A DNA stretch of 64,000 bases from NCBI RefSeq assembly GCF_054482525.1, contig NZ_CM137006.1. One strand, 5' to 3'. The notes under the pieces are model-generated. The model did not search any database. It worked only from the letters and a program-made list of their open reading frames with translations, and had not been told where the DNA came from. This document shows positions 11,815 to 29,461 of this stretch, in pieces. A program made the translations under genes and the position numbers. Each line of letters starts with the position of its first letter. The first letter of the stretch is position 1.

Positions 11815-12276
11815 CTATCTGCACTGCTCATTAATATACTTCTGGGTTCCTTCCAGTTGTTTTTGCATAGTGATCAGCCTCTCTCTGAGGGTGAAATAAT
11901 CCCGTTCAGCGGTGTCTGCCAGTCGGGGGGAGGCTGCATTATCCACGCCGGAGGCGGTGGTGGCTTCACGCACTGACTGACAGACTGCTTTGATGTGCAA
12001 CCGACGACGACCAGCGGCAACATCATCACGCAGAGCATCATTTTCAGCTTTCGCATCAGCTAACTCCTTCGTGTATTTTGCATCGAGCGCAGCAACATCA
12101 CGCTGACGCATCTGCATGTCAGTAATTGCCACGTTCGCCAGCTTCAGTTCTCTGGCATTTTTGTCGCGCTGGGCTTTGTAGGTAATGGCGTTATCACGGT
12201 AATGATTAACAGCCCATGACAGGCAGACGATGATGCAGATGAGCAGAGCGGAGATAATCGCGGTTAATCTGCTCAT
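11815..12276 (-). CDS. Rz: Spanin inner-membrane subunit Rz
   Basis: 153 aa, [40 protein letters not shown]..., reads as lambda Rz. Confidence 0.9.
11874..12056 (-). CDS. Rz1: Spanin outer-membrane lipoprotein Rz1 (embedded in Rz, +1 frame)
   Basis: 60 aa, [40 protein letters not shown]..., proline-rich lipoprotein wholly inside Rz. Confidence 0.85.
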
Positions 12277-12749
12277 ACCTCAATCTCTCTGACCGTTCCG
12301 CCTGCTTCTTTGAATTTTGCAATCAAACTGTCAACCTTATGCTCGAACTGACCATAACCAGCACCCGGCAGTGAAGCCCAGATATTGCTGCAACGGTCGA
12401 TTGCCTGACGAATATCACCGCGATCAATCATCGGTAAAGCGCCACGCTCTTTAATCTGCTGCAATGCCACTGCGTCCTGGCTATTGGGGGAAAAGTCTTT
12501 CAAACCAAGCTGTTTACAGTAAGCATCCCACCACCGGGAAAGAATCTGGTAGCGTCCAGCAGCCGTTGATTTAAGTTTTGGGTTTAGCGTGACAAGTTTG
12601 CGAGGATGATCGGAGTAATCAGTGAATAGCTCACCACCTACAATAACGTCGTAGCCGTGATTGCGGGTTGGCTGTCGCCCGTTATCCGTTCCTTCTGACC
12701 ACGCCAACATATCGAGGAAAGCTTTACGCTGAGGATTAAGATTTAGCAT
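12273..12749 (-). CDS. R: Endolysin R (lytic transglycosylase)
   Basis: 158 aa, ...[46 protein letters not shown]..., reads as lambda R. Confidence 0.92.
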
Positions 12750-13041
12750 TTTTCACCCCTGTCAGTCGTTCCCAGAAGTATGTCAGTGCAACCGAACCCA
12801 TCGCACCACTAATCCCCGCTGTCGCGAGAATCATGTAAATACTGAATCCACTTTCGATACTGATCAGGCCACCAATAACACCGGTGAATCCCGACACCAC
12901 TATCTGAGCCAAAGCATTTATCCAGCTCCACGTTGCTTTACTCTGCTTCACATCTATCAGGTAGCGGACCAGACCGCCCCAACCTGCGATGATCAGCAAA
13001 ACGAGCCAGAACGCTCCGGCAAGGCTCTCTTTTTCGTGCAT
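12736..13041 (-). CDS. Holin, class I-like with three predicted TM helices, not of lambda S type
   Basis: Position immediately upstream of and overlapping R; three hydrophobic segments plus charged C-terminus; first ATG is Met5 of the track ORF (track start is TTG). Confidence 0.6.
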   Translation of the reverse strand: MHEKESLAGAFWLVLLIIAGWGGLVRYLIDVKQSKATWSWINALAQIVVSGFTGVIGGLISIESGFSIYMILATAGISGAMGSVALTYFWERLTGVKNAKS

Positions 13042-13260
13042 ATGAATAGCCAATGTTTCGCCGCCGACAAAAGGCCGGGACGTTAAATGTCAGAAATCAG
13101 GCTCACGGGGTAATTTAACGACAAAGCACGGAGTTGATGCTCCCCGCAAGCCTGGAATAAAAAAGCCAGCATGTAGCTGGCAACAGAGGGTTAAGCAATA
13201 TCAACTCAACAGCTGAAGACACCCTGGCTGGGGTACGTTGGAAGGATACTCACCGCCCAG

Positions 13261-13296
13261 AAACAGAAAAGCCCAAGGCTTTAAACCTCGGGCTTG
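13261..13296 (-). terminator. Intrinsic terminator (tR'-like) of a short late leader transcript
   Basis: Minus-strand hairpin AGCCCGAGG-loop-CCTTGGGCT (9 bp with one G-U) followed by CTTTTCTGTTT. Confidence 0.45.
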
Positions 13297-13350
13297 AATT
13301 TGGATTACTGCCAGTGCGTACAACATTGGCAAAATATCAGATTTACATAA

Positions 13351-13379
13351 AATATATGATTTTTAATCCAGTTTTGCAA
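13351..13379 (-). promoter_or_regulatory. Candidate late promoter (pR'-like): -35 TTGCAA, 17-bp spacer, -10 TATATT
   Basis: Sigma70-like hexamers with 17-bp spacing at the 3' end of the Q-like gene, about 50 nt upstream of the hairpin terminator. Confidence 0.4.
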
Positions 13380-14052
13380 TATCTTGCTGTGAAAATGTGG
13401 TCTTTTGTTTTGAACGTGTTTTCGTTAAAAGCAATAAAGCTTGGCTATCAAGCTGTAGAAAAATGTGCTTCATTGCAACCCAGCGTTCAGTAAATGTCTC
13501 AGACCAGTTTTTTGATGTCACTCCCACCAGTGATGCCAACTCCTGGTATTCATAGGTCTTACGCCCTGCCAGCTCGTTCTTCACATCCTGTGCCGCCAGC
13601 CAGATCAACTTCTTCAAACGTTCCAGTGTCTTACCTGCAATTTTCCTGGTACCCAACAGAGTCTTAAACTCGCTCCATGCCCACTGCGTTATGGTGACCT
13701 GATGTTCCCAGCGAACACTTTCGCTGTAACTCCACAGCAACCACGCTTTCTGATGTTCTTCGAGAGACAGAACCGCGCGGCGCCATGATGATGTTGAGAA
13801 CTCGATCGGACTGACCAGGGCAATGGATGAGCCTTTCGCCCGTGACTGCTTACCGGGTATCGGCGGATTATCCAGCGTTATTAACCTGCCGGTCACTTCA
13901 TCCAGAATGCGCGGTTTCTTTCGTTTGTATGTACCGGTATCAAATTGCGCATGCTCCTGCCAGGCCACCAACTGCCCTTTCGTCGCACCACTCAGATCGG
14001 CGGTGGCCACCATGAGCTGCTCGCGAACAAACTGTAAATATTGGGTATTCAT
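13363..14052 (-). CDS. Putative late-gene antiterminator (Q-like), 229 aa
   Basis: Assigned by position between rusA/nin and the late promoter/lysis cassette; not similar to lambda Q; no family match recalled. Confidence 0.5.
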   Translation of the reverse strand: MNTQYLQFVREQLMVATADLSGATKGQLVAWQEHAQFDTGTYKRKKPRILDEVTGRLITLDNPPIPGKQSRAKGSSIALVSPIEFSTSSWRRAVLSLEEHQKAWLLWSYSESVRWEHQVTITQWAWSEFKTLLGTRKIAGKTLERLKKLIWLAAQDVKNELAGRKTYEYQELASLVGVTSKNWSETFTERWVAMKHIFLQLDSQALLLLTKTRSKQKTTFSQQDIAKLD

Positions 14053-14185: not shown

Positions 14186-14548
14186 TCATTCGCCCTCCAG
14201 TTCTGTAATGGTCAGCTCCAGCTTCCCGCCTTTAACGATCGGCATCTTCACAACGCGGTAATCAACAACCTGCGCATCATCCAGCCAGAAACCTGCTTTA
14301 GTAAGTGCGTCAAAAGCGGCTTTTTGCAGATTATCCAGGTCACGGCGACGGCGATCCGGCATGTGGCACTCAATGCGGATTTTCACTGGCATAGCCAGGC
14401 CGATATCCAGCATGGAGCCTTTGATGATTCGGGCGACGTTATCGCGGTATGCTTGCCCCTCTGCGCTGATGTGCGTGCGCCCGCGATTATGGCGGTAATA
14501 GCGATTATTGCTCGGAGGCCAGGGTAATGTGATGCTGTAGGTATTCAC
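14186..14548 (-). CDS. rusA: Holliday-junction resolvase RusA
   Basis: 120 aa, [43 protein letters not shown]..., reads as RusA. Confidence 0.92.
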
Positions 14549-15667: not shown

Positions 15668-16465
15668 TTACTCTCTGGAAGCTTTTCTTATCTCTCTTGG
15701 TGTTATATTAAAACGATTATGAAATCTTTCAGTAAAACGAGAAGGACACTTATAACCATTTTCTCTGGCAATCTCGCTTATAGGTTTTACCGTCGTTTGT
15801 ATAGCAGACAACGCATTATTTAACCTCACATCGTCCAGTATACTTTGGAAACTTACCCCCTCGCTTGCTAGACGGCGATGTAATGTAGAAACAGAAATGT
15901 AGAGATATCGTGCAACCTTGTTTGCTGTCCATTTTGTGCCGGGTTCGGATAGCAGCAGGCTATAACAACGACTTATCAATGATTGTTTACTATATGATAA
16001 AAGTAAATGATTAACATGATTCACTCCTAACGAAAGTAGAACGCCCATTGCTAAGTGTTCCTGAATTTTAGTTGAGAAGCCTCGGGAAACAGATGTTTTT
16101 AGTTGCTCCCAACAATATATTAACTCAGGATTCTGAGGTAAAAAGAAACTTGTTTTGTTACGTATTTGATCAGTTACCGTATAAAGTTTTTGGAAACTCT
16201 CAATTAAATCAATGGGTAAGTAAAGCATTTCTGCAAGATAAAGCCCTGCTTCAGGATAATTCTCAATATAAAATTCATAACCACAAGGAAATAATATTAT
16301 TTGATTATTATCAACAGTTAAAGTATGCGTCTCCCAATTGATAACTTTCTTTCCCTGACGGATACGACACAAAGCTGGCATAAGAGGCTTAACCCTATGA
16401 ATCTCATGATGTTTATGCATTCGTATTTCTTCGATCTTTAAGTTAGTCTTACCTCTTGCCAGCAT
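15668..16465 (-). CDS. AraC/XylS-family transcriptional regulator (ybcM-like), prophage cargo
   Basis: 265 aa with C-terminal AraC-type HTH (...[39 protein letters not shown]...); AT-rich gene. Confidence 0.85.
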
Positions 16466-16474
16466 ACTCTCACC

Positions 16475-17026
16475 CTACTTTATCTCATAAACTGGTGTTA
16501 TCTCAGCGGTTGCGATTTTATTAGCATTAAGCATATAACCAACTAACGCTCCGCTGGAGTTAGAATCTACAGGAATCTTTTCAGTTTTTAGAGCCCATAC
16601 TTTAAACTGGTAATGATGTGGTTTATCTCCTTTAGGAGGACATGCGCCACCAAACCCAGCATAGCCAAAATCATTTCGGCCTTGAACAGCACCAGTCGGC
16701 AGTTTTGTTCCATCACGTCTCCCTGCATCAACGGGCAAATATGTTACTGTTGCTGGAATATTAACAACAGTCCAATGCCACCAACCACTGCCTGTAGGTG
16801 CATCTGGATCATATACAGTTACGGCAAAGCTTTTGGTACCTTCAGGAACACCAGACCAGGTTAATGAGGGCGATGTATTACCACCTTCACACCCAAATCC
16901 AGAAAAGACATGAGACGTTGTAAGTTGCTCTCCTGTTTTTATTTCATTACTAGTGACCTGAAATGCTGCAGCCTGCGCAGAAAATGTTATGAATGCCAAT
17001 ACAGTTGAAACGATAAGTGTTTTCAT
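16475..17026 (-). CDS. Periplasmic PEBP/YbhB-family protein (ybcL-like) with signal peptide
   Basis: 183 aa, N-terminal signal peptide MKTLIVSTVLAFITFSAQAAAFQ; PEBP-like motifs (DPDAPTGSGWWHW, GYAGFGGACPPKGDKPHHYQF). Confidence 0.85.
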   Translation of the reverse strand: MKTLIVSTVLAFITFSAQAAAFQVTSNEIKTGEQLTTSHVFSGFGCEGGNTSPSLTWSGVPEGTKSFAVTVYDPDAPTGSGWWHWTVVNIPATVTYLPVDAGRRDGTKLPTGAVQGRNDFGYAGFGGACPPKGDKPHHYQFKVWALKTEKIPVDSNSSGALVGYMLNANKIATAEITPVYEIK

Positions 17027-17243
17027 AAAAACCTCTTTGTTATGACCTATCGTTATTTTATTTGATATTCCTTTATCTCATTATGCATAAAGGCGCAATG
17101 TTCATGCAAAAGCAATCACAATTGTACCCCCAACCCAATTATTTGCCACAATATACACAAAGCACATTGATACTATCTAAAAACTCTGCTTTATTATTAG
17201 TAATACCTACGAAAGTTGGTGTTATTTTTTAACCTACCATTCA

Positions 17244-17293
17244 AAATACGTGACATACACCATTTTGCTCATAATAATTTGTCACGTATTTTC
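17244..17293. repeat. Perfect 13-bp inverted repeat AAAATACGTGACA / TGTCACGTATTTT with 24-bp spacer
   Basis: Read directly from sequence in the AT-rich spacer between the recombinase 3' end and the PEBP gene start. Confidence 0.6.
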
Positions 17294-17490
17294 AGTATTT
17301 GAATCTGCGACCAAGAGTTCTCACCTAACAAATGATTAAGATTGTATAGCTCATTTACTACCCCAATACAGCCGTACAAAACTCGCTTGTGGGAGCAAAC
17401 AAAGTAATTACCCATTAAGTTTCGTTAAAGATAATTAATTCTGTCTTGCACTTTATCATCATAGCATAACTTAAAATCCGAGATCATTAT

Positions 17491-19017
17491 TTAGAAATAA
17501 ATCTCACCATCAACCATATATTTGAGAGCACTTATCGCCTGCTGGGCGGATATTACTTTCATTAAAGGATAGTGTTTAAAAACAATGCCATTCATAAAAT
17601 AGATATCACAGGTTTTATTATCCGTATTAATTATGATTTTTTCGAATGTTTTATAGGCAAGTGTACGGCATAACTCTCGTCCATTTTTACTGGTTAAGTC
17701 AATAGCATAAAAATCACTGAATGAATTTACACCTTTACTCTTCAAAGTTTTCAATGATACCGAAGCCCTTCGTAATTCCTTATCTAATAGTCTTATTTTC
17801 TCTGCTATAGCGGTAACTTCAGGCGCGACAGACAATGCAACGATTAAATTATTAATTTTCATCTGAAGCTCAATAATTTTTAACTCTAAAGTTTCATTAG
17901 CATCTTTCTTGTTTTCAACTGGTTGAATTTTGCTACAATTAAAAAGCAATTCATTAATGATATTATAATCAACCAAATCTCTTTTTATTGATGGCCTGTC
18001 ACATCGATGTAATCTTCTCATCGGACAAACATAATAGCCATGCAAACTTCCAGATACCGCATGAACAATCATGGTATTACCACAAGCCTCACACTTCATA
18101 ACTGTTCGAAGTAGATTTATTAGCATAGGATTCTTGCTACTATTGCTAATACCAAAAGGTGCCAACCGAATTTCCTGTACAGCGTAAAACAAATCATCTG
18201 ATATGACTCTGGGATAATAGCCAGCGATTTCACTTATCCCTTTCCCTCTTGCACGATATGAAGGTACGCATATACCTATCAGAGCTTTATTCGCTAATAA
18301 TTTTTCAATTACAGAAGGTCCCCATGCACTTTCTTTTCCTGAGAAATTCTTTACAGCATGATCATTTAAATACTTGGCTATTGCATTCAATGAGCGCCTT
18401 TCCATCCTGAGTTTAAAAATTAGCTCAATAGTTTTCACCCTGTCGGGGTCTGGAACAAAAGCCGTTCTTTTGTCATCTAAGGAGAGCCATCTCGGACAAG
18501 ACGCCGTCATAATCGTACCTGATTCCAGTGCATCCTGCCGTTTTTTCTTCCATGATAATTTAACCCGACTTGACTTTATCTCGCTTTCTTCATTTGCCCT
18601 TTGTGCTATAAGTATGGCTTTTATTAATGAATATGGCTCATTCAAAGAGTCAATATTATAGACTGTATTGTCGCAAAGAGTTATAACATCAATACCGTGA
18701 TTCAAAATCAATTTCAGACGTTCAATCGCTTCACCGACTTTTTCTCTTGAAAGTCTGTCCAGACTTTCAACTAACAATGTAGTTCCTGGCAATATATAAC
18801 CATGCTCTATAGCATCTAAAAATTCCGAAAAAGCTCCTGATTGTGCATGCTTTCCTTTGAATGCACTTAATCCTAAATCTTCATATGTTATGGTATCAAG
18901 ATAATAATCACTATTTACCTTTAACCATTCAGCAATAAGTCTTCTCTGTCGGTTTAATGAGTCGCCAGACATCTGACCTGGTGATGAAAATCGCATATAT
19001 GCTATGGCTTTTTTCAT
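17491..19017 (-). CDS. Large serine recombinase (ybcK-like), 508 aa
   Basis: N-terminal resolvase/invertase catalytic motif (AIAYMRFSSPGQ...SLNRQ), central recombinase domain, C-terminal Cys-rich zinc-ribbon (CEACGNTM...CPMRRLHRC). Confidence 0.85.
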   Translation of the reverse strand: MKKAIAYMRFSSPGQMSGDSLNRQRRLIAEWLKVNSDYYLDTITYEDLGLSAFKGKHAQSGAFSEFLDAIEHGYILPGTTLLVESLDRLSREKVGEAIERLKLILNHGIDVITLCDNTVYNIDSLNEPYSLIKAILIAQRANEESEIKSSRVKLSWKKKRQDALESGTIMTASCPRWLSLDDKRTAFVPDPDRVKTIELIFKLRMERRSLNAIAKYLNDHAVKNFSGKESAWGPSVIEKLLANKALIGICVPSYRARGKGISEIAGYYPRVISDDLFYAVQEIRLAPFGISNSSKNPMLINLLRTVMKCEACGNTMIVHAVSGSLHGYYVCPMRRLHRCDRPSIKRDLVDYNIINELLFNCSKIQPVENKKDANETLELKIIELQMKINNLIVALSVAPEVTAIAEKIRLLDKELRRASVSLKTLKSKGVNSFSDFYAIDLTSKNGRELCRTLAYKTFEKIIINTDNKTCDIYFMNGIVFKHYPLMKVISAQQAISALKYMVDGEIYF

Positions 19018-19271
19018 GGTGACACCTGCTAACGTATGCTTTTATAAACCTTAGTGGTGGGATATAATTTTTGTTTAATTTTTATTTAAAAAGACAATTA
19101 AGGTCACATTATCTTGAATATACAACAATAATCGTATTGCAATTTTCTTACGCCATAATCTTGAAGGCACAAAAGAATACATAAAAAATAAAGACATTAA
19201 CAAAAAGCATAAAACGAGGCTCATATAAATATAAGAGCCTCCATATTTTAGTCGTTTAGAAACAAATTATT

Positions 19272-19604
19272 TTAATGTGGTGTACTTCGTGACAATAAAT
19301 TAATAACCAACACACCGGCACAAATCAACATCATGCCTATAATGGCTGGCAGGTCCAGCCGTTGGCCGAAAAATCCCCATGACAGTAAGCTAATCAGGAC
19401 AATACCGACTCCTGACCAGATAGCATAAGCAATCCCTGTAGGAATATAAGCCAGCGTCTGAGCTAATAACCAGAATGATGCACAATAACAAATAATTGTA
19501 CCAACAGATGGCCATAACCGTGTAAAACCTTCTGAAAACTTCATTAAGGTTGTACCAATGACCTCTGCAAGTATTGCACCACCAAGATAAATATAAGGGT
19601 TCAT
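19272..19604 (-). CDS. emrE: Small multidrug-resistance efflux protein EmrE
   Basis: 110-aa product from MNPYIYLGGAILAEVIGTTLMKFSEGFTRLWPSVGTII..., reads as EmrE; track ORF trimmed to Met19. Confidence 0.88.
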   Translation of the reverse strand: MNPYIYLGGAILAEVIGTTLMKFSEGFTRLWPSVGTIICYCASFWLLAQTLAYIPTGIAYAIWSGVGIVLISLLSWGFFGQRLDLPAIIGMMLICAGVLVINLLSRSTPH

Positions 19605-19671
19605 AGCATATTCTTTCCTGTTCAAACTGGAGAGAATTGTACTACAGTTTGAACTCAACTCACCTGTTTCA

Positions 19672-19974
19672 TCATTGTGTACCCATTGATGTTCTTTTAT
19701 ATACCCTCAATACCCGTTTCATCGCGGCACTCTGGCGACACTCCTTAAAAATCAGATTCGTGCTCACCTTTCCTTCCCGTTCTTCTCTGGTAGCGAACCG
19801 GTAATACACCGTTCGCCAGACCTTACCATCAACGACCAGGATTCCTGCCCGCGCCATTTTAGCCGCAGCCTGATTTATGCTGGTTACGGTTGCGCCTGTT
19901 ACCGCGGCAACGTCCTGTGCACAGAAGCTCTTATGCGTCCCCAGGTAATGAATAATTGCCTCTTTGCCCGTCAT
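19672..19974 (-). CDS. ren: Ren (Rex-exclusion escape) protein
   Basis: MTGKEAIIHYLGTH.SFCA.DVAA.TGATVTSINQAAAKMARAG... reads as lambda Ren. Confidence 0.85.
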   Translation of the reverse strand: MTGKEAIIHYLGTHKSFCAQDVAAVTGATVTSINQAAAKMARAGILVVDGKVWRTVYYRFATREEREGKVSTNLIFKECRQSAAMKRVLRVYKRTSMGTQ

Positions 19975-20672
19975 ACGCTTGCTCCTTTCAGTCCGAACTT
20001 AGCTTTGATTTCTGCGATCTTCGCCAGAGCCTGTGCACGATTTAGAGGTCTACCGCCCATGACAGGAAGTTGTTTTACTGGTTCAGGGATCGCCTCACCA
20101 CGGTTAATTCTCGCAGTCATATGGACAAGCTCATCTGCGGCCTTACGGCGTAATTCCGCATCAGTAAGCGCATTGGCCCGCATGTTCTGATACAGGTTGG
20201 TAACCAGCCAGTAGTGCGCGTTTGATTTCCACGGATAAGACTCCGCATCCGGATACAGGCCTCGCTTCCGGCAATACTCGTAAACCATATCAACCAGCTC
20301 GCTGACGTTTGGCAGTCCGGCGATAACGGATGCTTCTTCCCGGCACCATGCAACAAACTGCCCGGGTGATGGCAGAAATGGTCGATTCTGCCGACGGGCT
20401 ACGCGCATTCCTGCGTTAACCTGTTCCATTGTGGTGATCCCGTTTTCCCGGAAAGCCAGAACCCACTGGCGGCGGATTTCGTTCAGTTCGTTCTGGTCAC
20501 GGTTAGCCAGACTCGCCGGGAAAGTTGCCAGTAACTGGCTGAACACACCGTTGATGATCTGCGCTACCTGCTGTACCTGCGGCTTTTCGTCGTACTGTTC
20601 CGGCATGTTGTTGGCGATCCGGCGCATCTGCTCACGGTCAAAGTTAACCATCTGTGCGGCGATGTTTTTCAT
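19971..20672 (-). CDS. P: Replication protein P (DnaB helicase loader)
   Basis: 233 aa, MKNIAAQMVNFDREQMRRIANNMPEQYDEKPQVQQVAQIINGV..., reads as lambda P. Confidence 0.93.
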   Translation of the reverse strand: MKNIAAQMVNFDREQMRRIANNMPEQYDEKPQVQQVAQIINGVFSQLLATFPASLANRDQNELNEIRRQWVLAFRENGITTMEQVNAGMRVARRQNRPFLPSPGQFVAWCREEASVIAGLPNVSELVDMVYEYCRKRGLYPDAESYPWKSNAHYWLVTNLYQNMRANALTDAELRRKAADELVHMTARINRGEAIPEPVKQLPVMGGRPLNRAQALAKIAEIKAKFGLKGASV

Positions 20673-21598
20673 AGCTCCACCCCGTAAATCCAGTCAGTGT
20701 TCGTCAGGTCGAATTTTGGTTTGCCGGCTGTCACGCCAGCCTGTTGCTTGTTACGGTTGATTTCGAGTTGGGTCCACTTGTCGCGGAGTTTGGCCGGACT
20801 TAGCACGTTACCGGACCAGAAGTTGTCCTGGCATGCCCAGCGGAACAGCACGCACATGTCGCGGTGGTTACGTCCGTCACGTTCACGCATCAGGCGGATA
20901 TCGTTAGCCCACCCTGCAAAATTCGGTTTTCTGGCTGATGGCGCGATGGTCTTCACCATGTCAAACATCCACTCTGCGGCGGTCAGGTCTTCTGCTGTCC
21001 CCCACTTTCTGCCGCTCTGAATTGCAGCATCTGGTTTCACCACAGGAAGATCCTTTTCTGGTTGGTCAGAGGATTCTCCAGAATTCTCGGACGAAAAAGG
21101 TTTTATATTGTCTTTTGTTAGTTTGTCTTTTGTGTTTACCTGATTCGGGTAAACGCCTTTACCTGATTTGGGTAAACTTTTCTTACCTGATTCAGGTAAA
21201 TTTACCTCTTTCAGGTAAACTTTATTTTTCTTACCTGATTCGGGTAATGTTGACCATTCACTGACCACATTATTAATACCGATATTCCGCCCGCTCTGAA
21301 TCAAAATCCCACGCTTTACCAGAACACTTTTTGCAGCAGAACACTTGTGCGGCAATATCCCGGTCAATTCGGACAGTTGCTCGTTGCTCACCCAATCCAG
21401 TTTTTTATTAAAGCCATATGTTTTGCGCATGACAGCCAGGAAGACCAGAAGCTGGTGCTGTGTTAATCCGGCCAGCATCACAGCTTCCAGCAACTCATTT
21501 GCAATGCGCGTATAACCATCATCGAGATCTGCCACGCGCGGCTCCTTTTGTGCCGCATCCGGCACAGGAAAATTGAATATCTCAGCAGTGTTTGCCAT
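20669..21598 (-). CDS. O: Replication initiator O (lambda O-like variant)
   Basis: N-terminal domain O-like (...VADLDDGY.R......LEA...); contains the iteron array; start trimmed to first ATG (Met31); the upstream TTG/GTG alternative is not excluded. Confidence 0.8.
   Translation of the reverse strand: MANTAEIFNFPVPDAAQKEPRVADLDDGYTRIANELLEAVMLAGLTQHQLLVFLAVMRKTYGFNKKLDWVSNEQLSELTGILPHKCSAAKSVLVKRGILIQSGRNIGINNVVSEWSTLPESGKKNKVYLKEVNLPESGKKSLPKSGKGVYPNQVNTKDKLTKDNIKPFSSENSGESSDQPEKDLPVVKPDAAIQSGRKWGTAEDLTAAEWMFDMVKTIAPSARKPNFAGWANDIRLMRERDGRNHRDMCVLFRWACQDNFWSGNVLSPAKLRDKWTQLEINRNKQQAGVTAGKPKFDLTNTDWIYGVEL
21136..21248. repeat. Origin of replication iterons: five copies of TTACCTGATTCGGGTAAA-like 18-mers inside the O gene, with adjacent AT-rich stretch
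   Basis: Copies at about 21136, 21159, 21183, 21202 and 21231, each an internal inverted repeat (TTACC...GGTAA); AT-rich run at 21090-21135. Confidence 0.75.
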
Positions 21599-21684
21599 AA
21601 TTCCTCCCGCAATGAGTGTGTTACGATTTGCACCTGAAAGTCGGTTCTGTTCCCGCAGACCGACTTTCGCCATTTTTGAACCTG

Positions 21685-22224
21685 TCATATTGCCCCCAGC
21701 ATGGTGGTTACCATCGCCATCAATGGACCAGCCAGATCCGGGTCCACTCGAAACATCGACACAATGCCTTCACTCATCTCCTTCAGTTTCTGGTGGCGTG
21801 GTGCGTTGAGAATGACCGCCTGCTTTGCCTCACAGAGTTCCTTTTCCATTTCAGCCAGCCGAGCCATGAAGCTATCCTGCTCAACCAGGTGGCCGCGATA
21901 TTCCAGCGGTAGTACCGCCAGAATTGCCGGGGTCAGTTCACGCACGTTATTTCGGTATTTTTCAGAATCGAATTTGTTATCGAGGAAGCGGAACAGCTTC
22001 TGGCGTGCACGGCTGACATCATCAGGGAAATCGATAGTGCCGCCGCCCTGCTCCCGATACTCATTCACAATGAGTGTGGCAACGACATCCTGATTATCTT
22101 CAGCCGACCAGGCGCGGACGGCATCACGGATTTTTTCGTGGCCTGGCACCTGTTTTGTTTGAGAACGATTTATCACCGCAGTCGGGCTAAATCCGCTAGT
22201 CTGTTGGTATGTAAGTGGTTGCAT
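21685..22224 (-). CDS. YdaT-family protein in the cII position
   Basis: 179 aa; segment ...EYREQGGG...TPAILAVLPLEYRGHL... resembles Rac YdaT; position immediately after the cro-like gene. Confidence 0.55.
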   Translation of the reverse strand: MQPLTYQQTSGFSPTAVINRSQTKQVPGHEKIRDAVRAWSAEDNQDVVATLIVNEYREQGGGTIDFPDDVSRARQKLFRFLDNKFDSEKYRNNVRELTPAILAVLPLEYRGHLVEQDSFMARLAEMEKELCEAKQAVILNAPRHQKLKEMSEGIVSMFRVDPDLAGPLMAMVTTMLGAI

Positions 22225-22293
22225 AATTGACTCCTTTAGTTTGAATTGACTGTTAAGTTGATTGCTTATTGTTAAAGAGCGTGAAATGGAAAT

Positions 22294-22524
22294 TTAAGCT
22301 GCGTTCTTTTCGGTGTGTGGAAACAACTTCGGAAGATCCGGGCGAATCTGGTATGCCTTCACTACTCCACCAGTAGCCGTAACAATGCTGCCGACATGTT
22401 CAGGGGATACCTTTGCTTTGTTGTGAAGCCACTTATAGACGGCCTGCTGTGAAACTTCGCAGGCAGCGCCCAGTTTCTTTTGTGAACCAACGATATTGAT
22501 CGCTGTTTTGATAGCTGGATTCAT
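22294..22524 (-). CDS. Cro-like HTH regulator (YdaS type)
   Basis: 76 aa, HTH ...KKLGAACEVSQQAVYKWLHNK...; divergent from the cI-like gene. Confidence 0.7.
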   Translation of the reverse strand: MNPAIKTAINIVGSQKKLGAACEVSQQAVYKWLHNKAKVSPEHVGSIVTATGGVVKAYQIRPDLPKLFPHTEKNAA

Positions 22525-22539
22525 AACAACCTCCGTGGT

Positions 22540-22620
22540 TAATTTGAATCAAGATTAAAACTATGGTTGTTTTTAGTCAACAACCATTTTCGTTTGATGG
22601 AATAAAACCTTGGTTGTACA
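22540..22620. promoter_or_regulatory. Right operator/promoter region (OR-like) between divergent cro-like and cI-like genes
   Basis: Palindrome ATGGTTGTT-N7-AACAACCAT at 22563-22587 and related AACTATGGTT / CCTTGGTTGT half-sites; the same motif family recurs at 24335-24390. Confidence 0.5.
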
Positions 22621-22628
22621 TTTGGACT

Positions 22629-23318
22629 ATGAAAACAACACTCTCAGAAAGACTTAAAGAAGCCAGATTAGCGCGAGGCCTTACACAAAAGGCGCTTGGG
22701 GATTTGGTCGGGGTTAGCCAAGCTGCTATTCAGAAAATCGAAACAGGGAAAGCTAACCAAACAACTAAAATCGTGGAGATCGCGAACGCTTTGGGTGTGC
22801 GCGCAGAATGGTTATCTTCTGGCGTTGGAAATATGTCAGACAGTACAGTGCAACCAATACAATCAACTGTCAGCCATTCCAAATACTTTAAGATTGACGT
22901 TCTTGATATAGAAGTGAGTGCCGGGCCGGGAGTCATCAACCGTGAATTTGTAGAAGTTCTACGCTCGGTTGAGTACTCGTTTGACGATGCTCGTCACATG
23001 TTCGATGGCAGGAAGGCGGAAAATATCCGCATCATTAACGTGCGTGGTGACAGCATGTCAGGAACGATCGAACCAGGTGATCTGCTGTTCGTTGATATCA
23101 CGGTTAAATCTTTCGACGGTGATGGTATCTATGCGTTTCTGTACGACGACACAGCCCATGTAAAGCGCCTGCAAATGATGAAAGATAAGCTACTGGTTAT
23201 CTCTGATAACAAGAGCTACTCACCGTGGGACCCGATCGAGAAAGACGAGATGAACCGGGTGTTCATTTTCGGGAAGGTTATTGGCAGTATGCCGCAGACG
23301 TATAGGAAACACGGATAA
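22629..23318 (+). CDS. Prophage repressor, LexA/S24 peptidase type with N-terminal HTH
   Basis: MKTTLSERLKEARLARGLTQKALGDLVGVSQAAIQKIETG... (HTH); C-terminal ...NVRGDSMSGTIEPGDLLFVD...HVKRL... (S24 Ser/Lys motifs); trimmed to first ATG. Confidence 0.8.
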   Translation: MKTTLSERLKEARLARGLTQKALGDLVGVSQAAIQKIETGKANQTTKIVEIANALGVRAEWLSSGVGNMSDSTVQPIQSTVSHSKYFKIDVLDIEVSAGPGVINREFVEVLRSVEYSFDDARHMFDGRKAENIRIINVRGDSMSGTIEPGDLLFVDITVKSFDGDGIYAFLYDDTAHVKRLQMMKDKLLVISDNKSYSPWDPIEKDEMNRVFIFGKVIGSMPQTYRKHG

Positions 23319-23397
23319 TCAGCTGCGTGCTGATGAGGCTTTTGGGTAATGCGCTGAAAGAATTCTTTATAAAAATAACATTACGGGAAAGGCAAAA

Positions 23398-23667
23398 ATG
23401 AGTGATAAAAAACTTATAAAAAAATCAAATAACTGTGTAGATGCATATGCTGATGCATTTGGATATTCATCTTTTGGGGAAGATGACGATCGCTTAGGCT
23501 CCATATCTTTCTTTCAGCATGTTACAGAATGGGGCGCTGATGGTAGTAATGACACTGAAAACGTAAAGTACAACATTGCAACAATTCGCATGACGGAAGA
23601 TTTAATGCTTAAACTCGCTGACTTTATTCGCGATCAGCATGATAGAGCTAAAACCAATAAGTCATAA
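23398..23667 (+). CDS. Hypothetical acidic protein (89 aa), first gene of the repressor-downstream moron
   Basis: ATG start with upstream AAAGG; no family recognised; C-terminal KYNIATIRMTEDLMLKLADFIR is reminiscent of a ribbon-helix-helix strand-helix. Confidence 0.5.
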   Translation: MSDKKLIKKSNNCVDAYADAFGYSSFGEDDDRLGSISFFQHVTEWGADGSNDTENVKYNIATIRMTEDLMLKLADFIRDQHDRAKTNKS

Positions 23668-23675
23668 TATTAACA

Positions 23676-24116
23676 ATGAAACACGGTTATTACGAAGCTC
23701 CAAACCTAACTGAAAAGCTTGAACAAGCGGCAAGATCATCATCTTTGCACACTGCAGCATTTTCTCAATCAGCTGGTATGTCTGGCGGTAATGTACCTAT
23801 GCTACAATCAAGTGGTAGCGGTGGCTCTGGGAGTAATAATGTGCTTGAATCGAAAGTTGCAAAGCTTGAGTCTGATGTGTCCTATATCCGACGTGACGTT
23901 GATGAGCTTAAGACAGATGTCAAATCTATCGACAGAAACATGATCGCTGTTCTGGAGCGACTCGATTCAATAAAAGATTCACTAGCCAAAAAACCCTCCA
24001 TCGATGCTGTCGATAGAAAGATTTCAGACGCAAAGCTTGCGGTATTGCTTGGTGTTCCAGCAATCATCGCTGCAGGAACAGGTCTTTATAAGCTATCAAT
24101 GTACTTTTTTCTTTAG
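23676..24116 (+). CDS. Hypothetical coiled-coil protein with C-terminal membrane anchor (146 aa)
   Basis: 8-bp gap after upstream gene; Gly/Ser-rich linker (SSGSGGSGSNN), charged heptad-like stretch, C-terminal hydrophobic helix LAVLLGVPAIIAAGTGLY; no family recognised. Confidence 0.5.
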   Translation: MKHGYYEAPNLTEKLEQAARSSSLHTAAFSQSAGMSGGNVPMLQSSGSGGSGSNNVLESKVAKLESDVSYIRRDVDELKTDVKSIDRNMIAVLERLDSIKDSLAKKPSIDAVDRKISDAKLAVLLGVPAIIAAGTGLYKLSMYFFL

Positions 24117-24191
24117 TGCTTAAGAAACTGCTCGCCACCTTGCATTACGCAAAGCGATTTTTCATTCCCTATTACCCTTTCTTATCCATAT

Positions 24192-24222
24192 AAACCCGGC
24201 CCCAGTGCCGGGTTTTCTTTTG
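24192..24222 (+). terminator. Intrinsic terminator closing the repressor-moron operon
   Basis: AACCCGGC-CCCAGT-GCCGGGTT followed by TTCTTTT. Confidence 0.65.
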
Positions 24223-24334
24223 CCTCCCCTCATCACACAAACCGTTCAAAAAACCACCACGACCTCGCTTCAGTTATCGCTATGCGATGCAAGTCACAAA
24301 ATAAATCCATCTTAAATACAACCAGTTATATCTA

Positions 24335-24390
24335 AAACAACCAATAAAACAACTTTTGTTGTTGACGATAAAACAACTATGGTTTTAAAT
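24335..24390. promoter_or_regulatory. Left operator/promoter region (OL/pL-like)
   Basis: AACAACCAAT, palindrome ACAACTTTTGTTGT and AACTATGGTT (same motif as the OR region); candidate -35 TTGACG, 17-bp spacer, -10 TTAAAT reading rightward. Confidence 0.45.
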
Positions 24391-24583
24391 GAATTCATCG
24401 CAACAACACAACGATACGGCAATCACCTGATTCACCGTTGCGATGACCGCTTAGATCCGCAGCTTGAATTTCAGCAGGCTCCGGGGAGTGCGAGGGGTGA
24501 AGCGGACGCGTGAACGTCGGTGTGACCAGCTGAAATCAACTCAACACTTCATACCTCAGTCGCTTCAACGAGGCGACTTAGTT

Positions 24584-24874
24584 ATGACAACCGGCGGCCA
24601 TCCACCGCCTGAATACGCGCAGAAGTCTCTATATGTTCAGCAGCCCAGCTTACGGGCAGGAGTTTTTATGGTTCATCAACATTACGGAACGCAGACCGTT
24701 AATCGAGGTGCGGTCATGCCAGGAATGCTGGTCAAACACAAAGATGGTACCTGGACTGCATCAGCTAATTTACGCGGACGGCTTTATCTGCATCGCGGCA
24801 TCGAGCGCACTTATACCCGTGACTTGCTCGTGGAAGTTTTTCTCGACGGGCGCGGCAACGGTCTGAATCACTAA
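24584..24874 (+). CDS. Hypothetical early-left protein (96 aa from first ATG)
   Basis: Only ORF between pL-like promoter and gam; track ORF starts at TTG 24464 with an Arg-rich stretch (GVKRTRERR) upstream of the first ATG; no similarity to lambda N, kil or cIII recognised. Confidence 0.35.
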   Translation: MTTGGHPPPEYAQKSLYVQQPSLRAGVFMVHQHYGTQTVNRGAVMPGMLVKHKDGTWTASANLRGRLYLHRGIERTYTRDLLVEVFLDGRGNGLNH

Positions 24875-24949
24875 TCCCCTTTCCTGTTTACCTAATCAGC
24901 CTGGCATTTCGCGGGCGATATTTTCACAGCCATTTTCAGGAGTTCAGCC

Positions 24950-25246
24950 ATGAACGCTTATTACATTCAGGATCGTCTTGAGGCTCAGAGCTGGGCGCGT
25001 CACTACCAGCAGATCGCCCATGAAGAGAAAGAGGCAGAACTGGCAGACGACATGGAAAAAGGCCTGCCCCAGCACCTGTTTGAATCGCTATGCATCGATC
25101 ATTTGCAACGCCACGGGGCCAGCAAAAAAGCCATTACCCGTGCGTTTGATGACGATGTTGAGTTTCAGGAGCGCATGGCAGAACACATCCGGTACATGGT
25201 TGAAACCATTGCTCACCACCAGGTTGATATTGATTCAGAGGTATAA
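24950..25246 (+). CDS. gam: Gam, RecBCD inhibitor (short form)
   Basis: 98 aa, [21 protein letters not shown]...; reads as lambda GamS; upstream in-frame stop prevents a long form. Confidence 0.9.
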
Positions 25247-25251
25247 AACGG

Positions 25252-26037
25252 ATGAGTACAGCACTCGCAACGCTGGCTGGGAAGCTGGCTGAACGTGTCG
25301 GCATGGATTCTATCGACCCACAGGAACTGATCACCACTCTTCGCCAGACAGCATTTAAAGGCGATGCCAGCGATGCGCAGTTCATCGCATTGCTGATCGT
25401 CGCCAACCAATACGGCCTTAATCCGTGGACGAAAGAAATTTACGCCTTCCCTGATAAGCAGAACGGCATCGTTCCGGTGGTGGGCGTTGATGGCTGGTCC
25501 CGCATCATCAATGAAAACCAGCAGTTTGATGGCATGGACTTTGAGCAGGACAATGAATCCTGTACATGCCGGATTTACCGCAAAGACCGTAATCATCCGA
25601 TCTGCGTTACCGAGTGGATGGATGAATGCCGCCGCGAACCATTCAAAACCCGCGAAGGCAGAGAAATCACCGGACCGTGGCAGTCGCATCCCAAACGGAT
25701 GTTACGGCATAAAGCCATGATTCAGTGTGCCCGTCTGGCCTTCGGATTTGCGGGTATCTATGACAAGGATGAAGCCGAGCGCATTGTCGAAAATACCGCA
25801 TACACTGCAGAACGTCAGCCGGAACGCGACATCACTCCGGTTAACGATGAAACCATGCAGGAGATTAACACTCTGCTGATCGCCCTGGATAAAACATGGG
25901 ATGACGACTTATTGCCGCTCTGTTCCCAGATATTTCGCCGCGACATTCGCGCATCGTCAGAACTGACACAGGCCGAAGCAGTGAAAGCTCTTGGATTCCT
26001 GAAACAGAAAGCCACTGAGCAGAAGGTGGCAGCATGA
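25252..26037 (+). CDS. bet: Bet (Red-beta single-strand annealing protein)
   Basis: 261 aa, [46 protein letters not shown]..., reads as lambda Bet. Confidence 0.94.
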
Positions 26038-26714
26038 CACCAGACATTATCCTGCAGCGTACCGGGATCGACGTGAGAGCTGTCGAGCAGGGGGATGATG
26101 CGTGGCACAAATTACGGCTCGGCGTCATCACAGCTTCAGAAGTTCACAACGTGATAGCAAAACCCCGCTCCGGAAAGAACTGGCCTGACATGAAAATGTC
26201 CTACTTCCACACCCTGCTTGCCGAGGTTTGCACCGGTGTGGCTCCGGAAGTTAATGCTAAGGCGCTGGCCTGGGGAAAACAGTACGAGAACGACGCCAGA
26301 ACCCTGTTTGAATTCACTTCCGGCGTGAATGTTACTGAATCCCCGATCATCTATCGCGACGAAAGTATGCGCACCGCCTGCTCTCCCGATGGTTTATGCA
26401 GTGACGGCAATGGCCTTGAGCTGAAATGCCCGTTTACCTCCCGGGATTTCATGAAGTTCCGGCTCGGTGGTTTCAAGGCCATAAAGTCGGCTTACATGGC
26501 CCAGGTGCAGTACAGCATGTGGGTGACACGAAAAGATGCCTGGTACTTTGCCAACTATGACCCGCGTATGAAGCGTGAAGGACTGCATTATGTCGTGGTT
26601 GAGCGGGATGAAAAGTACATGGCGAGTTTTGACGAGATGGTGCCGGAGTTCATCGAAAAAATGGACGAGGCACTGGCTGAAATTGGTTTTGTATTTGGGG
26701 AGCAATGGCGATGA
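26034..26714 (+). CDS. exo: Exo (Red-alpha 5'-3' exonuclease)
   Basis: 226 aa, [40 protein letters not shown]..., reads as lambda Exo. Confidence 0.94.
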
Positions 26715-26893
26715 CGCATCCTCACGATAATATCCGGGTAGGCGCGATCACTTTCGTCTACTCCATTACAAAGCGAGGCTGGGTATTTCCCGGCCTTTCT
26801 GTTATCAGAAATCCACTGAAAGCACAGCGGCTGGCTGAGAAGATAAATAATAAACGGGAGGCGGTATGCACAAAGCATCTCCTGTTGAGTTAA
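26711..26893 (+). CDS. Lambda orf60a-like protein
   Basis: [46 protein letters not shown]... recalled as lambda orf60a. Confidence 0.65.
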
Positions 26894-27057
26894 GAACGAG
26901 TATTGAGATGGCACATAGCCTTGCTCAAATTGGAGTCAGGTTTGTGCCAATACCAGTAGAAACAGACGAAGAATTTCATACGTTAGCCACATCCCTTTCA
27001 CAAAAGCTGGAAATGATGGTGGCGAAAGCAGAAGCAGATGAGAGAGACCAGGTATGA
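26866..27057 (+). CDS. Lambda orf63-like protein
   Basis: 63 aa ORF in the lambda exo-xis region; recalled as orf63. Confidence 0.6.
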   Translation: MHKASPVELRTSIEMAHSLAQIGVRFVPIPVETDEEFHTLATSLSQKLEMMVAKAEADERDQV

Positions 27058-27067
27058 CAACCACTGA

Positions 27068-27349
27068 ATGCATTTTTCTGGCAGCGGGCTTCATATTCTG
27101 TGTGCTTATGCTTGCCGGCATGGGGCTTGTTCAGTGACACCTCAGCAAGAAAACGCCCTTCGCAGCATTGCCCGTCAGGCTAATTCTGAAATCAAAAAAG
27201 CCAGACAGCAGTTTCCGGATAAAAACGTCGATGACATTTGCCGTAGCGTACTAAAGAAGCACCGCGAAACGGTAACGCTGATGGGATTCACACCGACTCA
27301 TTTAAGCCTGGCGATCGGCATGTTGAACGGCGTCTTTAAGGAACGATGA
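27068..27349 (+). CDS. Lambda orf61-like protein (start uncertain)
   Basis: C-terminal part (...SVTPQQENALRSIARQANSEIKKARQQ...) recalled as lambda exo-xis region orf61. Confidence 0.45.
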   Translation: MHFSGSGLHILCAYACRHGACSVTPQQENALRSIARQANSEIKKARQQFPDKNVDDICRSVLKKHRETVTLMGFTPTHLSLAIGMLNGVFKER

Positions 27350-27447
27350 ACATGAAAAGCAAAATCATCAGGGAGCTACAGGCTCCTTTTTTATTATTCG
27401 CATTTACCCTCAAGCGTATTAACCAACAATTCAGGGATTAATGAAAG

Positions 27448-27666
27448 ATGGCAGACATCATTGATTCAGCATCAGAAATCGAAGAATTACAGCGCAATAC
27501 AGCAATAAAAATGCGTCGTCTGAACTACCAGACTGTATCCGCAACTCATTGTTGTGAGTGTGGCGATCCGATAGATGAGCGAAGACGCCTGGCTGTTCAG
27601 GGTTGTCGGACTTGTGCAAGTTGCCAGGAGGAGATCGAACTTAAGAACAAACAATGGGGACTGTGA
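27448..27666 (+). CDS. TraR/DksA-family C4 zinc-finger protein
   Basis: 72 aa with CxxC-N17-CxxC (CCECGDPIDERRRLAVQGCRTCASCQ) and acidic N-terminal helix, typical of phage TraR-like RNA polymerase-binding proteins. Confidence 0.7.
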   Translation: MADIIDSASEIEELQRNTAIKMRRLNYQTVSATHCCECGDPIDERRRLAVQGCRTCASCQEEIELKNKQWGL

Positions 27667-27713
27667 TGGCCTCAAAGCAGCAAATTTCAACATCGTCCAA
27701 CTGAGGTGTAAAA

Positions 27714-27953
27714 ATGTTCAGAATCATTTTTCCTAACACCTGGTACGTCGACCATCACGGCACTCCCTGCAAAATCCTGCGTTCTACCCACAACAAAGTT
27801 CACTACATCCGAAAAGGCAGAACATGTATCGCCAGCATGTTCCGCTTTAATCATGACTTTGAACCTGTTAGTAAAGTGGAATCAGAGCGGATAGCCGAAG
27901 AGATCGATACAGCAGAACACATTAAGAAGTTACGCGCCATACGCAGGAAATAG
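27714..27953 (+). CDS. Hypothetical protein (79 aa)
   Basis: ORF with ATG start between the TraR-like gene and xis; no family recognised. Confidence 0.4.
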   Translation: MFRIIFPNTWYVDHHGTPCKILRSTHNKVHYIRKGRTCIASMFRFNHDFEPVSKVESERIAEEIDTAEHIKKLRAIRRK

Positions 27954-28092
27954 AAAAATTGATAAATTCAATACTGCATTTCTCAGCATTAAATTTATCT
28001 CTATGACCAGTCAAGAGATGTACCTGCCATGAGCTTAATATCATGTCAGATATATCGGTCACAAACTCCCTCAGCAGCTAAGAGGAGGACAA

Positions 28093-28329
28093 ATGTCTCG
28101 ACTAATCACTTTACAGGACTGGGCTAAAGAAGAATTTGGGGACTTAGCACCAAGTGAGCGAGTTCTGAAAAAATACGCGCAAGGGAAAATGATGGCCCCA
28201 CCCGCTATAAAAGTTGGTCGCTACTGGATGATTGACCGAAATTCCCGTTTTGTAGGAACGCTTGCAGAACCGCAACTCCCAATAAACGCAAACCCAAAAC
28301 TCCAACGGATAATCGCTGATGGCTGCTAG
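28093..28329 (+). CDS. xis: Excisionase (Xis-like)
   Basis: 78 aa; N-terminus MSRLITLQDW... parallels lambda Xis MYLTLQEW...; AGGAGG RBS; 3' end overlaps int start. Confidence 0.7.
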   Translation: MSRLITLQDWAKEEFGDLAPSERVLKKYAQGKMMAPPAIKVGRYWMIDRNSRFVGTLAEPQLPINANPKLQRIIADGC

Positions 28330-29461
28330 ACCCCGATCTCACAAAATCTCTATACCCAATTTATATTGCAAATTAGATAAGCGAACCGGAAAGGTATATT
28401 GGCAATACAAACATCCACTATCCGGTCGTTTTCATAGCTTAGGAACTGATGAGAATGAAGCAAAACAAGTTGCTACTGAAGCAAATACCATTATTGCTGA
28501 ACAACGTACCCGACAAATATTAAGCGTCAATGAGCGTCTAGAAAGAATGAAAGGCAGGCGCTCAGACATTACGGTGACAGAATGGCTTGATAAATATATT
28601 TCTATCCAGGAGGACAGGCTGCAACATAATGAACTAAAACCCAACTCCTATCGGCAAAAAGGTAAACCCATTCGTCTTTTCCGTGAGCATTGTGGAATGC
28701 AACACCTCAAGGATATTACCGCACTTGATATTGCCGAAATAATTGATGCTGTAAAGGCTGAAGGTCATAACAGGATGGCGCAAGTCGTGAGAATGGTGTT
28801 GATCGACGTCTTCAAAGAAGCACAACACGCAGGACATGTTCCGCCAGGATTTAACCCAGCGCAGGCAACAAAACAACCGCGAAATCGAGTAAACCGCCAA
28901 AGATTATCACTGCCCGAATGGCAGGCAATATTTGAAAGCATAAGCAGACGGCAGCCCTATTTAAAATGCGGCATGCTACTTGCTCTTGTTACTGGACAAC
29001 GTTTAGGCGATATCTGCAATTTGAAATTCTCTGATATATGGGACGACATGTTGCACATTACTCAGGAAAAAACCGGTTCAAAACTTGCTATTCCGCTTAG
29101 CCTGAAATGCGATGCTCTGAATATTACCCTTCGTGAAGTTATATCTCAGTGCAGGGATGCTGTTGTTAGTAAATATCTGGTCCATTACCGTCACACTACC
29201 TCTCAAGCAAACAGAGGAGACCAGGTTTCTGCAAATACTCTTACAACGGCTTTTAAAAAGGCCAGGGAAAAATGTGGCATAAAATGGGAGCCAGGAACTG
29301 CGCCCACATTTCATGAGCAGCGATCTCTGTCAGAACGGTTATATCGGGAACAGGGTCTGGATACGCAAAAGTTGTTAGGTCATAAATCCAGAAAAATGAC
29401 CGACCGATACAATGATGATCGTGGTAAAGACTGGATTATCGTAGATATCAAAACAGCATAG
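28319..29461 (+). CDS. int: Tyrosine integrase, lambda Int family
   Basis: 380 aa; motifs shared with lambda Int (RSHK near N-terminus, ...VTGQRLGDICNLKFSDI..., ...TFHEQRSLSERLY..., ...LLGHKS...RY.DDRG..W); adjacent to the attachment junction. Confidence 0.9.
   Translation: MAARPRSHKISIPNLYCKLDKRTGKVYWQYKHPLSGRFHSLGTDENEAKQVATEANTIIAEQRTRQILSVNERLERMKGRRSDITVTEWLDKYISIQEDRLQHNELKPNSYRQKGKPIRLFREHCGMQHLKDITALDIAEIIDAVKAEGHNRMAQVVRMVLIDVFKEAQHAGHVPPGFNPAQATKQPRNRVNRQRLSLPEWQAIFESISRRQPYLKCGMLLALVTGQRLGDICNLKFSDIWDDMLHITQEKTGSKLAIPLSLKCDALNITLREVISQCRDAVVSKYLVHYRHTTSQANRGDQVSANTLTTAFKKAREKCGIKWEPGTAPTFHEQRSLSERLYREQGLDTQKLLGHKSRKMTDRYNDDRGKDWIIVDIKTA

Follow-up and report, generated by a model that had tools for sequence, protein, structure and literature searches.

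Introduction

The Q protein of phage 82 and its late promoter pR', the model system of the Roberts and Hochschild laboratories, have served for decades as a standard in the study of sigma70-dependent pausing and antitermination.

[quoted passage not shown] Transcription from wild-type 82 pR' starts with AAA. The pause element is a -10-like sequence of the extended -10 type, closer to consensus than that of lambda; sigma engages at an RNA length of 21, the discriminator GCC is found at +15 to +17, and pausing occurs at +25/+26, where the native sequence has U at +25 preceded by G at +24, and where the 3' end is not followed by a G (Bird et al. 2016, PMC5001585). Three families of Q proteins are listed in the literature, of which the Q82 family corresponds to PF06323 and the lambda Q family to PF03589 (Yin et al. 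2022, PMC9388147). An AlphaFold comparison predicted a common fold for 82Q, lambda Q and AlpA (Wen et al. 2022, PMC9371919). Phages 21, phi80, 82 and P22 form short RNAs at their late promoters under the control of antitermination, and references to the one of phage 82 go back to 1980 (Sy et al. 2020, PMC7547250).

Here we describe a locus of this kind in a 64,000-nucleotide stretch of contig NZ_CM137006.1 (assembly GCF_054482525.1), to which we refer as the window. A previous reading of the same DNA, made from the sequence only, had noted a Q-like protein with a late promoter and a terminated leader. Very likely, the locus is a phage 82-type late-gene switch that belongs to a lambdoid prophage of E. 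coli. As such it is an already known object, i.e. one of the three classical Q systems.

The antiterminator gene and its surroundings

To judge from sequence comparison, the 229-aa protein encoded by the ORF that starts with ATG at 14052 and ends with a stop codon at 13365-13363 (minus strand; Table 1) is a Q antiterminator of the phage 82 type. Against Pfam, it matched PF06323 (Phage_antiter_Q) with 323.4 bits at a cutoff of 25, and residues 4-220 aligned to positions 1-217 of the 220-position profile, as befits a full-length family member. The best PHROG was 304, 'anti-termination protein Q-like' (E 6e-108). The Q protein of phage 82 (CAA63332, record X92588) has the same length and is identical at 216 of the 229 positions (94%, gap-free, E 1e-163), with 4 of the 13 substitutions among the last 30 residues, whereas identity drops to 86% with the 'Q82-like' Q of phage 434 and to 70% with AntQ of Gifsy-1, in the latter case over residues 1-216. 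PF06323 was the sole Pfam match at E <= 0.1, the lambda-Q (PF03589) and 21-Q (PF06530) families giving none; the family comprises 177 clusters at 50% identity (E <= 1e-3). The sequence-only reading had held that the protein is not lambda Q, and had suggested a comparison with the Q families of lambda, 21 and 82. This view was correct: the protein belongs to the 82 family, in which it is nearly the archetype, and not to a family of proteins other than antiterminators.

The relationship to lambda Q is restricted to structure. When the PF06323-family profile was compared to lambda Q with hhalign, a probability of 0.6% was obtained, i.e. no detectable sequence similarity, so that remote sequence homology was rejected and fold-level similarity alone is left. 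Searches of PDB chains gave no match at E <= 1 with the protein as the query, and none at E <= 10 with a 59-sequence family profile. An AF2 model of the 229-aa protein, based on the 59-sequence family alignment, had a mean pLDDT of 88.8, and with this model AlpA and lambda Q were the top two Foldseek matches, neither of them with an E-value that is significant by itself. The modelled resemblance of the Q82-type protein to lambda Q, at the fold level only, agrees with the published prediction and adds nothing beyond that AlphaFold comparison (PMC9371919).

The Q gene closes the nin region, and the late promoter and the lysis genes follow immediately downstream. It is the last member of a minus-strand run of ybcN, ninE, ybcO, rusA, ylcG and Q, which is followed by the promoter, the terminators, and the genes for holin, endolysin and Rz. 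The same order is found in the phage 82 record X92588 (orf151, ninE, orf96, rus, orf45), where orf45 has the position of ylcG. The TGA stop codon of ylcG overlaps the start codon of Q (ATGA). The Q gene had been described as lying between rusA and the lysis cassette, which is right as to its position, but ylcG intervenes between rusA and Q. What distinguishes the window from phage 82 is that the module is part of a prophage adjoining icd and is followed by a LydA-type holin gene.

About 310 nt without a credible gene separate the Q ORF from the holin gene. With its TTG start and its extension across the terminator, a 43-aa ORF inside the leader (13201-13332) was taken to be spurious. In phage PhiR47_2 the equivalent lysis genes bear the annotations lysozyme R and Rz, and in K-12 rrrD and rzpD. 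The 158-aa ORF in the endolysin position (12273-12749, minus strand) had no Pfam match at E <= 0.1. Presumably it resembles the lambda R transglycosylase.

Table 1 Positions of features in and around the late-control region of the window
Feature	Position	Strand	Basis or remark
emrE, SMR efflux pump	19272-19658	-	
508-aa recombinase-type ORF (ybcK in K-12)	17491-19017	-	
ybcL	16475-17026	-	
ybcM, AraC-type	15668-16465	-	
rusA	14186-14548	-	
ylcG (orf45 of phage 82), 46 aa	14049-14189	-	NCBIfam NF033498 YlcG, E 3e-20; PHROG 2705
Q antiterminator gene, phage 82 type, 229 aa	13363-14052	-	PF06323, PHROG 304, alignment with Q82
pR' -35 hexamer TTGCAA	13374-13379	-	scan; inside last Q codons ATT GCA AAA (I-A-K)
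17-bp promoter spacer AACTGGATTAAAAATCA	13357-13373	-	contains Q stop codon
pR' -10 hexamer TATATT	13351-13356	-	scan
Predicted transcription start, +1 = A at 13344, initial AAA	13342-13344	-	placed 7 nt after -10
sigma70-dependent pause element: TG (+6,+7), TATTTT (+9 to +14), GCC (+15 to +17)	13328-13339	-	sequence match to published positions
Predicted pause positions +25 (U) and +26 (A), putative Q loading site	13319-13320	-	
Predicted short leader RNA, about 81-84 nt	13262-13344	-	fold z = -4.5; sub-threshold match to Rfam isrJ
Leader hairpin 1 (+13 to +37)	13308-13332	-	RNAfold MFE and centroid; like first stem-loop of Rfam isrJ consensus
tR'-type intrinsic terminator, 12-pair stem-loop (+50 to +76), then UUUUCUGUUUCU	13259-13295	-	scan, RNAfold
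Second intrinsic terminator GCCAGC-TACAT-GCTGGC, then TTTTTTATTC	13155-13181	-	scan; stem and T6 at 13181-13165
First late gene, LydA-type holin	12736-13053	-	PF16083, E 8e-22; PHROG 785 holin
Remainder of lysis cassette	11815-12749	-	ORFs: endolysin position 12273-12749, Rz 11815-12276, embedded Rz1 11874-12056

Late promoter and pause element

The sigma70 promoter TTGCAA-17-TATATT that had been reported at 13351-13379 on the minus strand, overlapping the last codons of Q, is present as described. We placed the start site at 13344 because this is 7 nt past the -10 hexamer, and the AAA start and the remaining published positions then fit. From this +1, the sequence reads AAATCTGATATTTTGCCAATGTTGTA, in which the extended -10-like element is TGaTATTTT at +6 to +14, and the minus-strand G at 13321, T at 13320 and A at 13319 become +24, +25 and +26. 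All published descriptors of 82 pR' thus agree with the predicted start: the initial AAA, the extended -10-like element reaching to +14, GCC at +15 to +17, G at +24, U at +25, and a base other than G at +26. The likeness of promoter and leader to those of phage 82 is one of published positional descriptors (PMC5001585) and not of direct alignment, since the phage 82 record X92588 ends at the Q stop codon. The pause element, which lies in the first 25 transcribed bases and did not figure in the sequence-only reading, is the core of a Q-utilisation site, and by analogy with the phage 82 system the promoter spacer is the position where the QBE would be expected.

The number of promoter consensus matches is by itself not informative: three sites were found in 1.6 kb, as compared to 1.8 +/- 1.5 expected from shuffled sequences, which is within chance. 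What raises this promoter above chance is its fixed register in related phages together with its fit to the published 82 pR'. The register was established with 13 sequences, i.e. the window and 12 further records of phages or prophages of the Q82 family, including 434, PhiR47_2, Gifsy-1 and phages of Salmonella, Klebsiella, Enterobacter, Cronobacter and E. coli. The Q proteins of this set are 50-95% identical to that of the window, and the DNA compared was the 3' end of Q with the downstream region, anchored on the -35 hexamer. All 13 sequences have, free of gaps, a -35 hexamer, a 17-bp spacer, a -10 hexamer, 11 nt, the motif TGnTATnnT and a GC-rich triplet. The -35 hexamer is TTGCAA in 12 of them and TTGAAA in the remaining one, with the same register throughout. 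More variation is seen in the -10 hexamer (TATATT in 8/13, otherwise CATATT, TATACT or CAGAAT), which is always 17 bp from the -35 hexamer. The motif TGnTATnnT is present in every sequence, at an equal distance from the -35 hexamer.

These data also bear on the reading that promoter and hairpin are chance consensus matches in AT-rich intergenic DNA and that the late genes are driven from elsewhere. The unexceptional count of promoter-like sites is what such a reading would predict. It would, however, leave unexplained why the register of the elements does not change among 13 phages, even where protein identity falls to 50%, why they fit the published positions of 82 pR' exactly, why a scan of the 1.6 kb found 7 terminator-like sites where 1.1 +/- 1.0 were expected, and why the leader folds with z = -4.5. 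We regard its probability as negligible. The promoter and the hairpin are best understood as parts of a phage 82-type switch, and no sequence evidence against such a switch was found.

The plus strand of the same region carries the best promoter-like match, TTGGCA-16-TAAAAT at 13326-13353 (10/12), which is antisense, overlaps the pR' start and the pause element, and is directed into the 3' end of Q. Its -10 part is absent from most relatives, which have TTTCATG in place of TTTTATG. The AT-richness and partial symmetry of the promoter DNA probably account for this site, although in principle it could yield a paQ-like antisense RNA.

Leader RNA and terminators

Beyond about +17 the 13 sequences diverge, and in 12 of them an intrinsic terminator follows at +46 to +92, which implies leaders of 53-99 nt. 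In the window, the stem of the first terminator extends from 13295 to 13269 and is followed by TTCTGTTTCT; RNAfold gives 12 pairs, including one G-U pair. The 83-nt leader as a whole has a predicted folding energy of -27.6 kcal/mol (z = -4.5 as compared to shuffled sequences; RNAfold) and consists of two hairpins, with an A/U-rich linker ahead of the terminator. A second terminator, which the sequence-only reading had not mentioned, is found at 13181-13165, some 90 nt past the first and ahead of the holin gene. It has a 6-bp GC-rich stem and is identical in phage PhiR47_2.

The hairpin with U-tract upstream of the holin gene had been recognized before, with a stem of 9 bp; the stem has 10-12 pairs. 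The leader length of roughly 80 nt given at that time was also borne out, but the suggestion that this is unusually short was not: since the leaders of the relatives are 53-99 nt, the leader of the window (81-84 nt) is typical of the Q82 family and not an anomaly, and a length of 74 nt was determined for IsrJ, the homologue in Salmonella (Padalon-Brauch et al. 2008, PMC2330248). It is lambda that is the outlier in comparison with Q82-family leaders, with a leader that terminates at +193 (PMC4914094) instead of at about +81 as in the window. Lambda further differs by its pause at +16/17, as compared to +25/26 for 82 (PMC5001585). Apart from this, the logic of the two systems is the same, as is their position in the genome: the late promoter is active constitutively, the polymerase pauses close to it in a sigma70-dependent manner and is joined there by a Q protein bound to DNA, and in lysogens a short terminated leader is formed. 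The proposed architecture, in which a pR'-like promoter and a tR'-type terminator serve a Q-type protein, is supported by the identity with Q82 and the register of the elements.

To the observed protein identity, sequence elements in register, terminator structures and gene order, the phage 82 model would add pausing, Q loading, NusA dependence and read-through, which we infer by analogy to take place at this locus as well. In a lysogen, sigma70 RNA polymerase would start constitutively at pR' and pause around +25, because sigma region 2 re-binds the -10-like TGaTATTTT. As long as Q is absent, transcription would end at the +50 to +76 hairpin or else at the second terminator, which lies some 90 nt beyond it and would serve as a back-up, and an RNA of about 80 nt would be the sole product. 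After induction, expression of the early rightward operon, with the nin genes, rusA, ylcG and Q, would supply the Q82-type protein. This protein would bind its DNA site in the promoter and join the paused polymerase, with help of NusA and with contact to the beta-flap tip. Travelling along with the polymerase, Q would cause both terminators to be ignored, and the read-through would allow transcription of the genes for holin, endolysin, Rz/Rz1, and head and tail proteins, all of which are on the minus strand.

Relation to IsrJ and a possible regulatory RNA

The leader matched the Rfam model of isrJ (RF01393) over its full length (model positions 1-75, window positions 13347-13268) with 30.4 bits and E 8e-4 in a 401-nt search. 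The gathering score of this family is 37, which means that the leader is related but falls outside the curated boundary. At the gathering threshold, Rfam gave no match in the whole window, and a search for tRNA genes found none. The leader region gave further weak Rfam matches, among them VqmR, rseX and MicC (E 0.2-10), which we attribute to chance.

Inspection of the Gifsy-1 record (NC_010392, 33406-35026, minus strand) revealed that isrJ (Rfam, 100 bits) directly follows TTGCAAAACTGGATTAAAACGGCTATATTTTATGTAAATCTGATAT, which comprises the remnant last codons (I-A-K-L-D-stop) of a Q82-type gene and then a promoter, start and pause element of the pR'82 type. IsrJ starts from the same TTGCAA-17-TATATT promoter and with the same 5' end TGTAAATCTGATAT as the leader of the window, and has an equivalent terminator, whereas the interior is different. 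Unlike the window, Gifsy-1 has a P1-like c4/antirepressor module (isrK-orf45-anrP) between antQ and the IsrJ promoter. AntQ (STM2617) is encoded some 830 bp upstream of this promoter, and its similarity to the window protein is lost after residue 216; in between are c4-a1b1/isrK, C4 antisense RNA elements and the antirepressor-like STM2616/AnrP. The simplest reading of these sequences is that the end of a Q82-type gene received a c4/ant module of the immunity type, by which Q would have been split from pR'. AnrP was first suspected to be the Q82 homologue because the order 'orf45-AUGA-anrP-isrJ' resembles ylcG-Q-leader, but the Gifsy-1 record rejects this: the homologue is AntQ/STM2617, and AnrP/STM2616 is antirepressor-like. 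Since the same promoter and pause motif stand at its start in Gifsy-1, IsrJ appears to be the terminated late leader RNA of a Q82-type promoter, an interpretation that is not stated in PMC2330248, Hershko-Shalev et al. 2016 (PMC4825925) or PMC7547250.

This raises the possibility that the leader of the window, in addition to its part in antitermination and not as an alternative to it, acts in trans on host targets in lysogens as an Hfq-associated sRNA, a role that has been described for StxS and claimed for IsrJ of Salmonella. The match along the whole isrJ model and the Rfam placement of Gifsy-1 IsrJ directly after the same -35/-10/AAA/TGATAT motif are in line with such a role, as is the stable two-hairpin fold with its A/U-rich linker before the terminator. 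Moreover, IsrJ was detected as a 74-nt RNA, the deletion of which lowered invasion and effector translocation (PMC2330248), and in StxS a pR'-tR' leader is known to serve as a regulatory sRNA (PMC7547250). Like the leader considered here, StxS of Stx phages is a short RNA that arises in lysogens by early termination of the late transcript (PMC7547250). Stx phages have, however, a different Q and a different promoter, and StxS is processed from a longer leader; its Hfq binding and targets have been shown, whereas the window leader is known from sequence. Against a trans-acting role it can be held that the Rfam score is below the gathering score, and that what the leader has in common with IsrJ, namely the 5' 14 nt and the flank of the terminator, is needed for pausing and termination, while the middle part differs. 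The leader interior is not conserved across the 13 relatives, so there is no family-wide seed, and for this E. coli RNA there is no known target or Hfq binding. A second function as an sRNA therefore seems to us rather unlikely. The same doubt applies to the broader proposal that the leader of about 80 nt is the E. coli counterpart of IsrJ, acting in trans on host mRNAs in lysogens, and that IsrJ is itself a 6S-like leader of the Q82 type that was cut off from antQ by a c4/antirepressor insertion; we put it forward tentatively.

State and distribution of the prophage

The prophage adjoins icd and looks complete. An integrase gene (28319-29461) and a gene for an S24-peptidase repressor (22563-23318) are located within 19971-29461; the prophage also has YqaJ/RecT recombination genes, a gene for a YdaT-domain protein, and full-length O and P. 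Terminase, portal, protease and capsid genes are found downstream of pR' on the same strand. Since the prophage has this complete appearance, the late-switch module is, as far as sequence can tell, probably functional.

The module could instead be an intact-looking relic in a prophage that is defective or never induced, like DLP12, in which case Q would never act and the terminated leader alone would be made. The nin region and the lysis flanks are indeed 98% identical to those of the cryptic DLP12 of K-12, and the genes emrE, ybcL, ybcM and bor, which benefit the host, are embedded in the prophage. In the slot between ylcG and the lysis genes, DLP12 has QuuD-nmpC-essD, i.e. a 127-aa QuuD antiterminator, the IS5-disrupted porin gene nmpC and the different holin essD instead of the Q82 module, which is a classic mosaic replacement. 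Full-length O and P, a cleavable repressor of the S24 type and an integrase, unlike in DLP12, argue against a relic, as do the presence of terminase, portal, protease and capsid genes, the full-length Q that aligns with Q82 free of gaps, and the occurrence of a 95% identical module in the deposited genome of phage PhiR47_2, with E. coli C as the listed host. We consider a relic improbable, and a working phage 82-type switch remains the preferred explanation.

The early right operon contains host-type cargo genes (15668-19658, minus strand) that separate P/ren from the nin genes, an arrangement that is also found in DLP12.

The module matched 1418 of 5426 complete E. coli genomes, and in 790 of these the match covered at least 80% of the query; among the matches listed, the module gene was annotated as antitermination protein Q. 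Hundreds of E. coli genomes carry this allele under the annotation 'bacteriophage antitermination protein Q'. When the whole window was compared with complete E. coli RefSeq genomes, the best matches were about 98-99% identical and not near-identical, for the prophage and the flanking icd, purB and phoQ regions alike.

Implications

As the locus represents a textbook phage late-gene switch, its value as a discovery is small. It does allow the late operon of this prophage to be annotated precisely, with a start site, a pause site, two terminators and a leader RNA, and the comparison of 13 phages yields a clean footprint of promoter and pause element of the Q82 type. If IsrJ is indeed the terminated late leader of such a promoter, as it appears to be, a published virulence-associated sRNA would be re-framed as a by-product of phage late control.
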